A stretch of 32,000 nt of DNA, taken from NCBI GenBank assembly GCA_019468145.1, contig JAHXDM010000002.1, positions 262,757-294,756 of the forward strand, in the 5' to 3' direction. The position numbers were made by a program, and so were the translations under genes. Within the stretch, counting starts at the first letter, position 1; each line of letters opens with the position of its first letter. This document shows, piece after piece, positions 657 to 20,236 of the stretch. The notes beneath the pieces are model-generated. The model had not been told where the DNA came from and ran no database searches. It saw only the letters and a program-made list of their open reading frames with translations. The stretch comes from Rickettsia endosymbiont of Bradysia coprophila. GTDB lineage: Bacteria; Pseudomonadota; Alphaproteobacteria; Rickettsiales; Rickettsiaceae.

Positions 657-2375
657 ATGTTACAAAGTCTTTCGGTTAAAAACTTTATTCTGATAGACGA
701 AGTAGAAATTGAATTTGAGACAGGTTTGTGCGTAATTACCGGGGAAACAGGAGCAGGAAAATCTATTCTCCTTGATGCGATTTTATTTTCATTAGGAGGC
801 AAATTTTCAGATGATATAATAAAACATGGGAGCGATTATTGTGTAGTCACCACGATTTTTACCTTAAATGATAATTTAAAAAAACTTTTAGAACAATTTG
901 ATATTGAATATGATGGAGAATTGCTGATAAAACGTATTCAAAAATTGGGTAATCGCAAAAAATTCCTGATTAATGATCAAGTAGTTACTCAAAATACTTT
1001 ACAACAAATAGCCGGGCATTTATTTGAATTGCATGGTCAAAATAATCATACTTCATTGCTTTCTCCTTCTTCTCATCTCAATATTTTAGATAATTATGGG
1101 GATCTTCTGGATTTAAAAGCTGAATTGAATAAATATTATAATATTTATCAGGAAATCACTAAGGAGACAAATAAAATTCAGCAAGGTAAAGAGGCGATAG
1201 ATAGGGAGATTGGTTATTTAACTTTTATAATTGAAGAATTAACAAGCTTGGACATTCAAGAAGGAGAAGAAGAAAAGCTGGTAAATATAAGGCGTAACTT
1301 GCAAAATCGTGAGAAAGAATTACGTGCTACGGAAGATATTCTTTCCTATCTAGAGAATCCTAATTTAAGCAACTTAATCAATAGCGCCCAACGTTTAATA
1401 ACGCGCCAGTTATCCAACAATGAAGAATTTCTAGTGATTTCCGCAAATTTAGATGATTGTGATACTAGTTTAGAAGAAGCTCGTATTAAGTTACAAAATA
1501 TTATTAATAAGTTTGAGGCGAATGAATTTAATATCGAAGAAATAGAGCAGCGATTATTTACCTTAAGGGCTAAAGCTCGTAAATATAATATTTCGTGTGA
1601 TTTGATTCCGCAATTCCTTAAAAATTCTAAAGAGCAGTTAAAGATTTTAAAAGATCAAATTAATAATATTAAAAGTTTGGATAGTAGTAGAGGGGAGAAA
1701 TATCAGGAATATTTTAGATTAGCGTCAATTTTATCACAAAAAAGAACATTTAGCGCAAAAAAGTTAGAAATAGCTATTAAAAAAGAGCTAGTACAACTTA
1801 AAATGGAAAAGACAGTTTTTAAGGTAGAAATTGTTTCGAAGAGTATCGTTCCAAAAAATAATGTATCTTCCAGTGAGTTGGAGGCCAAGAATATAGGAGA
1901 GAAGTGTGATAATCAAGCTGTAATATATAAGGATGGAATTGATAATGTCCGGTTCTTAGCTACCACTAATCCTGGTATGGAGCCTGCTTCTATTGATAAA
2001 ATTGCCTCTGGAGGGGAATTATCACGCTTTATGTTAGCAGTAAAAACTTGTCTTTTTGATAAATTATTAGTTGATACTATAATTTTTGATGAAATAGATA
2101 CGGGTATTGGTGGGGTTGTAGCGGATAAAATAGGGGAAAGACTAAAGAATCTTAGTTCTTTAGCGCAGGTAATTGTGATTACTCATCAACCACAAGTAGC
2201 AGGCAAAGCAAGTCAGCATATTTTGGTTAGTAAAACTCACTATGATCGGGGTACTAAGGTGGCTATCAAAACTTTAAATATTGATGAAAGACAACAAGAA
2301 ATTGCTCGGATGATCTCAGGTAAATCTATTACTAAAGCCAGTTTAATAGCTGCAAAGGAATTATTAATAAGTTGA
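657..2375 (+). CDS. recN: DNA repair protein RecN
   Basis: 572 aa. N-terminal Walker A GETGAGKS, long coiled-coil middle, C-terminal SMC-type signature ASGGELSRFMLA and Walker B IIFDEIDTGIGG. Confidence 0.9.
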   Translation: MLQSLSVKNFILIDEVEIEFETGLCVITGETGAGKSILLDAILFSLGGKFSDDIIKHGSDYCVVTTIFTLNDNLKKLLEQFDIEYDGELLIKRIQKLGNRKKFLINDQVVTQNTLQQIAGHLFELHGQNNHTSLLSPSSHLNILDNYGDLLDLKAELNKYYNIYQEITKETNKIQQGKEAIDREIGYLTFIIEELTSLDIQEGEEEKLVNIRRNLQNREKELRATEDILSYLENPNLSNLINSAQRLITRQLSNNEEFLVISANLDDCDTSLEEARIKLQNIINKFEANEFNIEEIEQRLFTLRAKARKYNISCDLIPQFLKNSKEQLKILKDQINNIKSLDSSRGEKYQEYFRLASILSQKRTFSAKKLEIAIKKELVQLKMEKTVFKVEIVSKSIVPKNNVSSSELEAKNIGEKCDNQAVIYKDGIDNVRFLATTNPGMEPASIDKIASGGELSRFMLAVKTCLFDKLLVDTIIFDEIDTGIGGVVADKIGERLKNLSSLAQVIVITHQPQVAGKASQHILVSKTHYDRGTKVAIKTLNIDERQQEIARMISGKSITKASLIAAKELLIS

Positions 2376-2414: not shown

Positions 2415-2523
2415 TATACTCCTCTAATATGAATTTGCATGAGTTATTACTTCAATGCTCTCCTAGATTTTGACTCAGCTCTGCCCTCAGGCAAGGCAGT
2501 AAAATCATCTGAAGAGGAGTATA
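2415..2523. repeat. Palindromic RPE-like (MITE-like) element, copy A, intergenic between convergent recN and the methyltransferase gene
   Basis: Perfect 11-bp terminal inverted repeats: tatactcctct (2415-2425) and agaggagtata (2513-2523). The reverse complement of 2415-2438 matches 20080-20103 at 23 of 24 nt. The interior is G+C-richer than the flanks. Confidence 0.6.
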
Positions 2524-2543: not shown

Positions 2544-3272
2544 TTAAGGGACTGAAGATAAATAAAAGGCGATAGAAGCAGCGTTTGATACATTGAGGCT
2601 TTCTACTTTATTTGATATGGCTATTCTCGCTAACTGATCACATGTTTCTTTTACTAATGACCTAATACCTTTATCTTCAGAACCAAGCACTATCGCTATT
2701 TTTCCTGCGAGCATCTTGCTGGTTAAAATGTGGTCTGCATAACCATCTAGACCTATGATCCAAAAATTTTGTTTTTTCAAATATTCTAATATTCGTGTTA
2801 TATTAGTTACTTTAAGAACCGGGACTATTTCAAGAGCTCCAGAAGCTGTTTTAGCTATTAAGGCGTTTTCAGCAGGGGTATTATCCTTTGGCAATATTAT
2901 AGAGCTAATATTAAAAGAGGCGGCGCTGCGAATAATTGCTCCAATATTATGCGGGTCGGTGATTTGATCAAGAATTACGATTTTACAATTAGGATTTTTT
3001 ATGTTAATATCTTCAATATGATTTAAAAATATAGTTTGAACGTAAGCTGCTATTCCCTGGTGATTTTGCTTTAAACCAAAAAGACGCATTAAAGATTCCA
3101 TTGTTGTAATCTGATAGGCAAAATTAGAGATTAATTGTTGGTTAGAATTAAAAATCTCTTCTGTGCATAAAATATTTTGTATATGGCGTTTAGGGTTTTG
3201 AAGTGCGGCCAGGACCGTATGTTTCCCATATATATAATGGAAGTTTTTAGAAGATTTGTGTTTATTTGACAT
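2544..3272 (-). CDS. rlmB: SpoU/TrmH-family RNA 2'-O-methyltransferase (RlmB-like, 23S rRNA Gm2251 type)
   Basis: SpoU motifs ILDQITDPHNIGAIIRSA, IVLGSEDKGI and LNVSNAASIAFY. ATG at 3272 (MSNKHK...) is preferred over the track's upstream TTG at 3290. Confidence 0.75.
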   Translation of the reverse strand: MSNKHKSSKNFHYIYGKHTVLAALQNPKRHIQNILCTEEIFNSNQQLISNFAYQITTMESLMRLFGLKQNHQGIAAYVQTIFLNHIEDINIKNPNCKIVILDQITDPHNIGAIIRSAASFNISSIILPKDNTPAENALIAKTASGALEIVPVLKVTNITRILEYLKKQNFWIIGLDGYADHILTSKMLAGKIAIVLGSEDKGIRSLVKETCDQLARIAISNKVESLNVSNAASIAFYLSSVP

Positions 3273-3488
3273 CTTAAGTAAACCGAACAAGAATTAATTC
3301 TTGACACAAAGTACTATTTATTATAGAAAGTTACAACTGATAAACGTTTTGGGTATATAAAATTTAATGTGGGCTTCATTAGCGGGCTTCAAGAAAAATG
3401 AGTAAGGTAGCTTATTTACTCTTCTTGTGCTTTTTAAGAGTTGTGCTTTACGTTTTGTTGAACTATTTAATACTTGCGTAAGTTCTGC

Positions 3489-19122: not shown

Positions 19123-19383
19123 ATGGCTAACCATACGTCAGCAAAAAAAGCAATTAGACAAACAATAAAAAAGACTTTAATTAATAAAAATAGATCGAGT
19201 AGAATAAAAACATATATAAAAAAAGTTTTACAAGCAATTGGTGAAGGATCAAGAGAATCTGCAAAATCTGCTTTGATAGTTGCACAATCTGAAATAATGA
19301 AAGGTGTAACAAAAAATATTATCAAATTAAATACCGCTTCCCGCAAGATTAGTAGATTATCTCAAAAAATTAAAAATATGTAA
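19123..19383 (+). CDS. rpsT: 30S ribosomal protein S20
   Basis: 86 aa. [14 protein letters not shown]....N.....RIKTYIKK pattern. Confidence 0.9.
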
Positions 19384-19398
19384 TAAAGGGGAGCCTCC

Positions 19399-20067
19399 GT
19401 GCTATCCTTAGAACAATTGACATTTAATATAGGAAAAAAAAAATTATTTGCTGGGATTAGCATATCTTTTTTACCATCTTCTATAATTTACTTACACGGC
19501 AGTAATGGATCGGGAAAAACTTCCTTACTGCGGATAATATCTGGCCTGCAGGTTCCAAGCAAAGGCAGAGTGCTGTATAGATCATTGGAATGTAAAGACC
19601 TTAAAAAACCATATTGCAATTATATTGGTCATAATAATGGATTAAAGTTGCAGCTCACGGTCTTAGAATATTTAAAATTCTGGAGCCAAATTTATGACTC
19701 TCTAGAAGCATTAGAGTCTGCAATATATTATTTTAAATTATCTTCTATTTTACATACCAAATGCCATATACTTTCTGCTGGTAATCAAAAAAAACTTGCC
19801 TTAGCTAAATTGATGGCTTGCCAAACTAATTTGTGGTTATTAGATGAGGTAGAAGCAAATCTTGATCAAGAAAATAAAGGATTATTATATAATTTAATTA
19901 TTTCTAAAGCAAATAATGGGGGAATTATTATACTAACTTCCCATTCAAATATAGATATTAAAACTGCTGAAATAATCAAGTTAGAGGATTATACCCCTCT
20001 GCCGATGGTTTTGCCGTCTTGTGCGATGGAGCGAAGCCTTATAGATAATAAGGCGAACGACGGGTAA
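19399..20067 (+). CDS. ccmA: Heme exporter ATP-binding protein CcmA; the 3' end (last 25 codons and stop) is supplied by an inserted palindromic element
   Basis: GTG start. Walker A GSNGSGKTSLLRII.GL, signature LSAGNQKKLALAKL, Walker B LWLLDEVEANLD, H-loop TSH. The tail YTPLPMVLPSCAMERSLIDNKANDG is encoded by the element at 19990-20103. Confidence 0.85.
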   Translation: MLSLEQLTFNIGKKKLFAGISISFLPSSIIYLHGSNGSGKTSLLRIISGLQVPSKGRVLYRSLECKDLKKPYCNYIGHNNGLKLQLTVLEYLKFWSQIYDSLEALESAIYYFKLSSILHTKCHILSAGNQKKLALAKLMACQTNLWLLDEVEANLDQENKGLLYNLIISKANNGGIIILTSHSNIDIKTAEIIKLEDYTPLPMVLPSCAMERSLIDNKANDG

Positions 20068-20103
20068 CCGACCGGCCCCGCAAATTCATATCAGAGGAGT
20101 ATA
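19990..20103. repeat. Palindromic RPE-like (MITE-like) element, copy B, inserted in-frame at the 3' end of ccmA
   Basis: 12-bp terminal inverted repeats tatacccctctg (19990-20001) and cagaggagtata (20092-20103), with 1 mismatch. Conspicuously G+C-rich interior (gccgatgg...cgacgggtaaccgaccggccccgc). Homologous in inverted orientation to 2415-2523. Confidence 0.65.
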
Positions 20104-20111
20104 TAAAGCCA

Positions 20112-20141
20112 TTGACATGAATTTGAGATAAATTCTATATT
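20112..20141 (+). promoter_or_regulatory. Candidate sigma70 promoter P1 upstream of the proline-rich orphan
   Basis: TTGACA (20112-20117), an 18-nt spacer, then TATATT (20136-20141). Confidence 0.3.
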
Positions 20142-20169
20142 TGTTGAAAATTGTTTCTTTAATTGTTTT

Positions 20170-20198
20170 TTGACTTTGCTAAAATGATGCTGTATTAA
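20170..20198 (+). promoter_or_regulatory. Candidate sigma70 promoter P2 upstream of the proline-rich orphan
   Basis: TTGACT (20170-20175), a 17-nt spacer, then TATTAA (20193-20198). Confidence 0.3.
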
Positions 20199-20236
20199 AT
20201 GTAAAAGTTAGTAATTAAATAAAATTGGTATTATAT

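Follow-up and report, generated by a model that had tools for sequence, protein, structure and literature searches.

The window, as we call the whole stretch of 32,000 nucleotides analysed here from the Rickettsia endosymbiont of Bradysia coprophila, holds a ccmA gene whose open reading frame runs past the part recognizable as CcmA into a G+C-rich palindromic element and finds its stop codon there. This raises the question of where the element came from, how it entered the gene and what became of the protein end that it displaced. Selfish palindromic repeats inside protein-coding genes are a known oddity of Rickettsia; Rickettsia palindromic elements (RPEs), including RPE-2, were reportedly described by Ogata et al. 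(2000/2002). A first-pass annotation of the sequence had proposed that an RPE-like element inserted into ccmA in frame, donated 25 codons and a stop codon, and pointed to an active or recently active repeat family. Here we follow up this proposal by comparing the locus with its orthologues, with the remainder of the genome and with curated RPE models.

The 3′ end of ccmA

The ORF at 19399..20067 is CcmA according to a curated equivalog model, which it matches over the full length and above the cut-off: NF010063 gives 265.9 bits (cut-off 200), with residues 1-196 aligned to profile positions 1-195 of 195, and TIGR01189 ccmA gives 167.6 bits (cut-off 131.6). The gene and the element comprise the following features:

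19399..20067, plus strand: ccmA ORF in its present form, 222 aa plus TAA stop, with a GTG start (from the ORF list)
19399..19992, plus strand: ancestral coding part of ccmA, Met1-Tyr198 (orthologue alignment; GAGGAT TAT kept relative to the empty site at locus L059)
19990..20103, plus strand: palindromic element with flanking TA dinucleotides (family profile; 112-bp gap relative to L059)
19992..20001, plus strand: left terminal inverted repeat TACCCCTCTG, 9 of 10 positions pairing with 20092-20101
19993..20064, plus strand: 24 element-derived codons forming the new CcmA C-terminus TPLPMVLPSCAMERSLIDNKANDG (translation; absent from all orthologues)
20023..20068, plus strand: central core common to the canonical RPE-2 of sister genomes (element positions 34-79, 83-92% identity)
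20065..20067, plus strand: new stop codon TAA, inside the element (sequence and ORF list)
20092..20101, plus strand: right terminal inverted repeat CAGAGGAGTA, pairing with 19992-20001
20105..20131, plus strand: relic of the ancestral ccmA tail, KAIDMNLR plus TAA, untranslated, downstream of the element (translation and alignment to the relative)

The composition of the element sets it apart, as had been remarked from the sequence: its G+C content of 0.509 exceeds that of the ccmA core (0.305), of the following 300 bp (0.297) and of the window overall (0.338). The outer boundaries first proposed, 19990-20103, hold as a description of the ends (TATACCCCTCTG and CAGAGGAGTATA, in which 11 of 12 positions are complementary), but the profile of the repeat family described below aligns to 19991-20102 (nhmmer, E = 6.7e-25) and the net insertion amounts to 112 bp. 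In a symmetric reading, the element proper (19992-20101, 110 bp) is framed by one TA on either side (19990-91 and 20102-03). As RNA, the element is predicted to reach -39 kcal/mol (z = -2.95), and none of 200 shuffled sequences folds equally well. An Rfam scan of 19300-20300 returned nothing relevant. Genome-wide, the G+C content is 37.8% as against 33.8% in the window, and the assembly contains many small contigs, some of them perhaps plasmids.

Homologues of this CcmA carry the names of Candidatus Tisiphia or Torix Rickettsia endosymbionts. The 17 orthologues that were aligned are 184-209 aa long and end 1-11 variable residues past Tyr198; the tail occurs in none of them. A six-frame search of 16 congeners gave ccmA open frames of 199-213 codons that likewise lack the tail, which is also missing from more distant Rickettsiales, and the family profile has no match at the ccmA 3′ end of the orthologous loci L032-L059. 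Nor is the tail shared by the closest relative found, whose CcmA (protein P0002) is 85% identical and is encoded at L059 on a 2.4-kb contig of a public run. Its empty site reads GAGGAT TAT AAA GAT GTT AAC ATT AAT TTG..., and compared with it the window shows a clean 112-bp insertion after TAT and then resumes TATAAAGCC.... The locus offers a clean before/after comparison: one can see the site without and with the element, the stranded remnant of the old tail and the newly acquired stop codon.

The exact extent of the new sequence follows from Tyr198, which is identical in at least 90% of the 17 aligned orthologues and whose codon TAT (19990-19992) the nearest relative has at its empty site as well. 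The insertion therefore brought 24 codons and a stop codon, not 25, and the CcmA core, which had been taken to end in ...KLED after about 197 aa, ends in ...KLEDY after 198 aa. The Tyr198 codon is ancestral and was either retained or rebuilt from the element's first bases. The stop codon TAA at 20065-20067 does lie inside the element, as first stated. The left part of the element is read by ccmA as YTPLPMVLPSCAMERSLIDNKANDG, then TAA, and TPLPMVLPSCAMER is a peptide that would mark the tail, if it is made. As the net insertion of 112 bp is not a multiple of 3, it shifted the frame, and the frame in which ccmA reads through the element is not the usual coding frame of the family; the insertion was thus not in frame, contrary to the first description. 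The canonical (RPE-2) frame of this copy holds two stops. The shift could be tolerated only because the insertion site lies at the extreme 3′ end of ccmA.

Downstream of the element, positions 20102-20131 read TAT AAA GCC ATT GAC ATG AAT TTG AGA TAA, that is, YKAIDMNLR*. The relic KAIDMNLR aligns with the CcmA tail YKDVNINLEEIQ of the closest relative at the protein and the DNA level, and its stop codon is possibly the ancestral ccmA stop. The C-terminus was remodelled as had been claimed, but the new tail replaces an ancestral tail of eight residues rather than being added to a complete protein. For annotation, the 222-aa CcmA should be described as a 198-aa core plus a repeat-derived tail. 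Within the stranded old tail there is a promoter-like site at 20112-20141 on the plus strand (TTGACA, 18 nt, TATATT; 11 of 12 positions agreeing with the consensus), just upstream of an orphan proline-rich gene at 20225/20237. In the closest relative, TTAACA stands in place of TTGACA, and a promoter may have been sharpened here once the coding constraint was lost after the insertion.

We consider it very probable that ccmA received, at a TA after Tyr198, a MITE-like element of the RPE-2 lineage that gave the gene a frame-shifted, near-neutral new tail. A non-autonomous palindromic element of this kind, inserting at TA dinucleotides, would have entered at TAT|AAA, between the Tyr198 codon and the next ccmA codon, in an ancestor of this bacterium after its split from the nearest sampled relative. 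Owing to the 112-bp shift, ribosomes would run through 24 element codons in a non-canonical frame and stop at the internal TAA, and the last eight ccmA codons with their stop codon would be left downstream as non-coding DNA. Since the ABC ATPase core is untouched and the segment past Tyr198 is short and variable, this change was probably near-neutral.

A dispersed repeat family and the fate of the ccmA copy

The genome searched for further copies comprises 2.27 Mb in 25 contigs. A BLAST search with the 114-base element returned at least 38 full-length matches of 75-85% identity, and three rounds of nhmmer returned 95 matches, 77 of them near full length (105-112 bp, mostly 105-108 bp), which is well beyond chance. 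The copies fall into two subfamilies with 36 and 33 members, of which the latter includes the ccmA copy, and one of the two subfamilies also has a replaced core. Across the 77 copies, an 11-bp terminal and a 9-bp subterminal stem are paired in 70-99% of the copies per position (70-97% for the terminal stem), counts that were made on a consensus-derived structure and are biased towards it. Folded one by one, the copies have a median z of -3.35 relative to shuffles; RNAalifold run on all 77 copies yielded no consensus structure. Two further copies lie in the window:

2416..2522, minus strand: second family copy, full length (nhmmer, E = 1e-26)
28364..28464, minus strand: third family copy (nhmmer, E = 6.9e-25)

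The copy at 2416..2522 is intergenic, between the convergent ORFs 657..2375 (plus strand) and 2544..3290 (minus strand). The one at 28364..28464 is read in frame as LPLSDDFAALRDGTKPIDNQALSNDAHKFISEGY inside a 681-aa ORF (27641..29686, minus strand). The segment 'PLSDDFAALRD' of this 681-aa protein is the in-frame family copy, and 11 unrelated ORFs encode this peptide of about 35 aa as well; the likeness of the segment to the protein's own DLSFADD repeats may be a coincidence.

Altogether, 12 copies are fully contained in long ORFs (281-1122 aa), sharing one orientation and one frame, and 11 of them span 101-105 bp, or about 35 codons; 62 family matches overlap no ORF of at least 80 codons. The peptide common to the in-ORF copies, about 35 residues long, reads I[LP]LSDDFAALR...KFISEEY and, where it turns up in unrelated proteins, should be annotated as repeat-derived and not as a functional motif. 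Pfam domains were found in five of the nine host ORFs scanned, namely those of an EAL protein, a Mrp/Nuo-type antiporter subunit, a Mur ligase, a thiamin pyrophosphokinase and the DNA polymerase III delta' subunit. The insert lies between the middle and the C-terminal domain in the Mur ligase and within the catalytic domain in the thiamin pyrophosphokinase. For the Mur ligase and delta', each fully matching congener aligns as two segments without the 35 residues, with no gap between the segments in G010 (Mur ligase) and in G011 (delta'). The same two congeners have full-length copies of this branch with 72-80% identity, some of which are located inside long ORFs in G011.

The ccmA copy has 85% identity to the consensus of its subfamily (median 92%); of the 37 copies that lie nearer to this consensus, just five have diverged further from it, and the nearest relative of the ccmA copy in the family is likewise 85% identical. 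The core of the ccmA copy is nearer to canonical RPE-2 than to the consensus of its own subfamily. Judged by these identities, the copy looks old for its family. Elsewhere in the family the identity to the nearest neighbour has a median of 0.92 and reaches 0.98, so that some of the spread must be more recent. An active or recently active family, as first suggested, finds little backing in the ccmA copy with its 85% but is in keeping with some other copies that are 95-98% identical to a neighbour.

The insertion might have been co-opted, that is, the tail or the mRNA hairpin might be under selection because it stabilises the mRNA, terminates transcription before the next gene or offers CcmA a new interaction. 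Public sequencing data bear on this idea. Contigs from three public runs span both filled junctions of ccmA: the first is identical across all 901 bases, the second, labelled as another organism, differs by two substitutions and lacks one base at 20074, and an air-metagenome contig has C>T at 20078 and G>A at 20146. The three differences in or just past the element (20074, 20078 and 20146) all follow the new stop codon, and an empty-site joint was found among none of the contigs of the three runs, which show presence only and leave rare empty alleles invisible. Several independent samples with only the filled allele, differences restricted to sequence past the stop codon, the stable fold and the near-consensus promoter-like site just downstream would suit selection. 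A clonal endosymbiont can, however, fix an insertion without it, and the scan for terminators found no terminator-like site at the element, with the T-run absent after the stem. The tail itself, taken as 24 or 25 residues, matches nothing in Pfam or NCBIfam up to E = 10 and is read in a non-canonical frame, and the segment that it replaced varies in length and sequence across the orthologues. In addition, the position of the ccmA copy among the most diverged of its subfamily is what neutral decay predicts. We regard co-option as improbable. Nothing in these comparisons points to a new function of the tail, which was most likely tolerated as near-neutral rather than selected.

Relation to RPE-2

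Membership in the RPE class was tested with the curated peptide models RPE-1 to RPE-5 in six-frame searches of the genome. The model for the Rickettsia palindromic element RPE-2 (PMC3767692, PMC10969869) is NCBIfam TIGR03774 'RPE2', which has 35 positions and a cut-off of 36.15 bits. It had 20 matches in this genome, all of them below the cut-off and the best at 26 bits; 18 of the 20 lie inside family copies, in the orientation and frame of the family, and cover model positions 12/13 to 25-32. The ccmA copy itself has no TIGR03774 match, and Pfam/NCBIfam scans of the whole 681-aa protein, in-frame copy included, detected no RPE domain up to E = 10.

Sister genomes contain a 107-bp family with the ends TATAGTCAATT...AATTGACTATA that passes the RPE2 cut-off (about 52 bits), and elements with these ends in another genus of the same family score up to 73.5 bits against the RPE2 model. 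Ten sister-genome elements belonging to the family above the cut-off were used to build a DNA profile, which hit 69 places in this genome. Among the 25 matches listed, 24 are copies of the family found here (best E = 1.5e-20), and several align over most of the profile (positions 2-107); the ccmA copy is matched with E = 2.2e-9. DNA homology to bona fide RPE-2 copies hence extends along the length of the element. The central core, positions 34-79 of the ccmA element, is shared with many copies in G001-G016, where L073 and L077 are one place.

In its general nature the family is of the RPE kind, a short dispersed palindromic repeat present in many copies in a Rickettsiaceae genome, and its 12 gene-internal copies leave the frame unbroken and keep one orientation and frame. 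The RPE-like behaviour proposed at first is borne out by a dispersed family of about 95 copies, the 12 in-frame inserts of about 35 codons and the RPE-2 homology. The resemblance to RPE-2 in particular includes a length of about 105-107 bp, a long terminal stem, TATA...TATA ends and a G+C content above that of the host genome, besides tens of dispersed copies and in-frame inserts of about 35 codons in unrelated housekeeping genes, in one orientation and frame, and a central core that in the ccmA copy is 83-92% identical. The terminal repeats differ: the family ends in TATACYCCTCT and AGAGGRGTATA where canonical RPE-2 has TATAGTCAATT and AATTGACTATA, the replacement extending over the terminal 11-25 bases. 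Furthermore, the ccmA copy is read outside the usual frame and ends its protein rather than forming an internal loop. With peptide scores below the cut-off and termini that are not canonical, the family does not belong to RPE-2 in the strict sense.

The other classes fit less well, though RPE-1, 3, 4 and 5 are selfish palindromic repeats of the same general sort. RPE-1 (TIGR01045) has seven matches above the cut-off in the genome, all away from the family copies; RPE-3 (TIGR03775) and RPE-4 (TIGR03777) have zero, and RPE-5 (TIGR03776) has one weak and unrelated match. Copies of RPE-1 are found, for instance, at C22:127704-127841, C22:1257445-1257579 and C22:376760-376903, several of them inside long open frames (260-1198 aa). 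Counting RPE-1, the number of gene-entering palindromic families in the genome comes to at least three or four.

A third family, of about 106 bp, combines canonical RPE-2 ends (TATAGTCAATT...) with another core and has at least 14 copies of 89-96% identity, for example at G000 C12:65999-66104 (L131:1246-1351), C22:37571-37681, C22:96249-96354 and C6:319827-319932. A truncated IS630-like (DDE_3) frame, duplicated on the contigs C12 and C15, lies downstream of one of its copies, about 120 bp away. At G000 C6:319439-320236 and C22:1076073-1076276, partial copies of the ccmA type adjoin copies of the TATAGTCAATT family, which looks like nested or clustered insertions.

Could the family be an independent MITE, unrelated to RPEs and only convergent with them in size and behaviour? 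The termini TATACYCCTCT, unlike those of the sister genomes' RPE-2, would fit, as would the lack of any copy above the RPE2 cut-off and of RPE domains in the whole-protein scans. Against this stand the alignment of the bona fide RPE-2 DNA profile with family copies, for several of them across most of the length, the identity of the cores, the 18 weak peptide matches in one frame and orientation, and the common length and TATA...TATA ends, and we hold an unrelated origin to be highly improbable. On the peptide-model matches, the RPE-2 DNA profile and the core identity, we place the family within the RPE-2 lineage, as a diverged branch that has acquired new termini. This lineage has diversified in the Torix / Tisiphia clade, giving rise to the present family, whose copies in this genome number about 95.

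The ccmA case is a known phenomenon, represented here by a very clear new instance in a diverged RPE-2-like family. An element in a coding gene of the same clade has been described in the Torix Rickettsia RiCNE, where an in-frame 107-bp RPE occupies positions 1560-1666 of RiCNE_05410 (PMC5656822); we liken the two by description and not by sequence. Unlike that internal in-frame insert, the ccmA element sits at the extreme 3′ end of its gene and provides the stop codon. Besides adding internal loops, such elements can also rewrite the C-terminus of a protein by frame-shifted read-through.

Insertion site and means of spread

Of the 77 copies, 67 have a T immediately to the left of the profile and 73 an A immediately to its right; one position further out, the base varies. 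All three empty sites that could be aligned have TA at the insertion point, GAT-TA-TAAAG in ccmA, GT-TA-GT in the Mur ligase gene and AA-TA-GC in the delta' gene. Two further genes yielded no empty site: in the antiporter gene the insertion region was too variable for alignment, and for the thiamin pyrophosphokinase gene no orthologue match was obtained in the four genomes tried. The symmetric reading would place an element TAC...GTA between duplicated TA dinucleotides, and insertion between T and A would fit equally well; with three empty sites, a TA duplication, a T/A insertion and a TA that is part of the element are indistinguishable. TA-flanked elements could in principle be excised precisely, and there is only one very close relative to compare, but we give practically no credence to an ancestral tail from which 112 bp were lost elsewhere by precise deletion or excision. 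None of the 16 congeners has the tail, nor do the closest relative and more distant Rickettsiales; the relative's functional tail aligns with the conserved Tyr and with the relic KAIDMNLR, which would be senseless as original non-coding DNA; and the sequence belongs to a dispersed repeat family.

A duplicated TA is characteristic of many MITEs and of transposition of the IS630/Tc1-mariner type. To our knowledge, the means by which RPE-2-type elements spread has never been pinned down, and a search of the available literature found no paper that ties RPEs to target-site duplication, save one MITE review mentioning both terms. Like the MITEs of IS630/Tc1-mariner transposons, the family is small, has terminal inverted repeats and no coding capacity of its own, and shows TA at its empty sites and flanks. 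What sets the family apart from them is that the search for a parent insertion sequence with matching inverted repeats was negative: in this genome, no transposase lies between paired family termini. Orphan termini form five pairs within 4 kb, which is about chance expectation, and one of these pairs is a large inverted genomic duplication. At G000 C22:664278-666847, a large inverted duplication unrelated to the element contains two copies of a gene beginning MKILAFDTANNSA.

The genome has four DDE_3 (IS630-type) frames, which are fragmentary and lie in degraded regions with no clear ends. Many identical copies of IS630-like (DDE_3) insertion sequences exist in congeners. Their ends start TA-TAGT or TA-TACT, and the likeness to the family ends ceases after about six bases. 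Tentatively, RPE-2-type elements could be TA-specific transposons in the style of IS630/Tc1-mariner that are moved in trans by the IS630-like elements of Tisiphia, the new termini seen here reflecting a switch of transposase; we think this rather unlikely as it stands. The TA at the empty sites is nevertheless a testable clue to the movement of RPE-type elements and a modest mechanistic lead. G014, G016, G011 and G002 each hold between 16 and 37 near-identical IS630-like elements, whose open frames measure only 179-203 aa; this points to transposases that are split over two ORFs or frameshifted and have recently been active in the genus.
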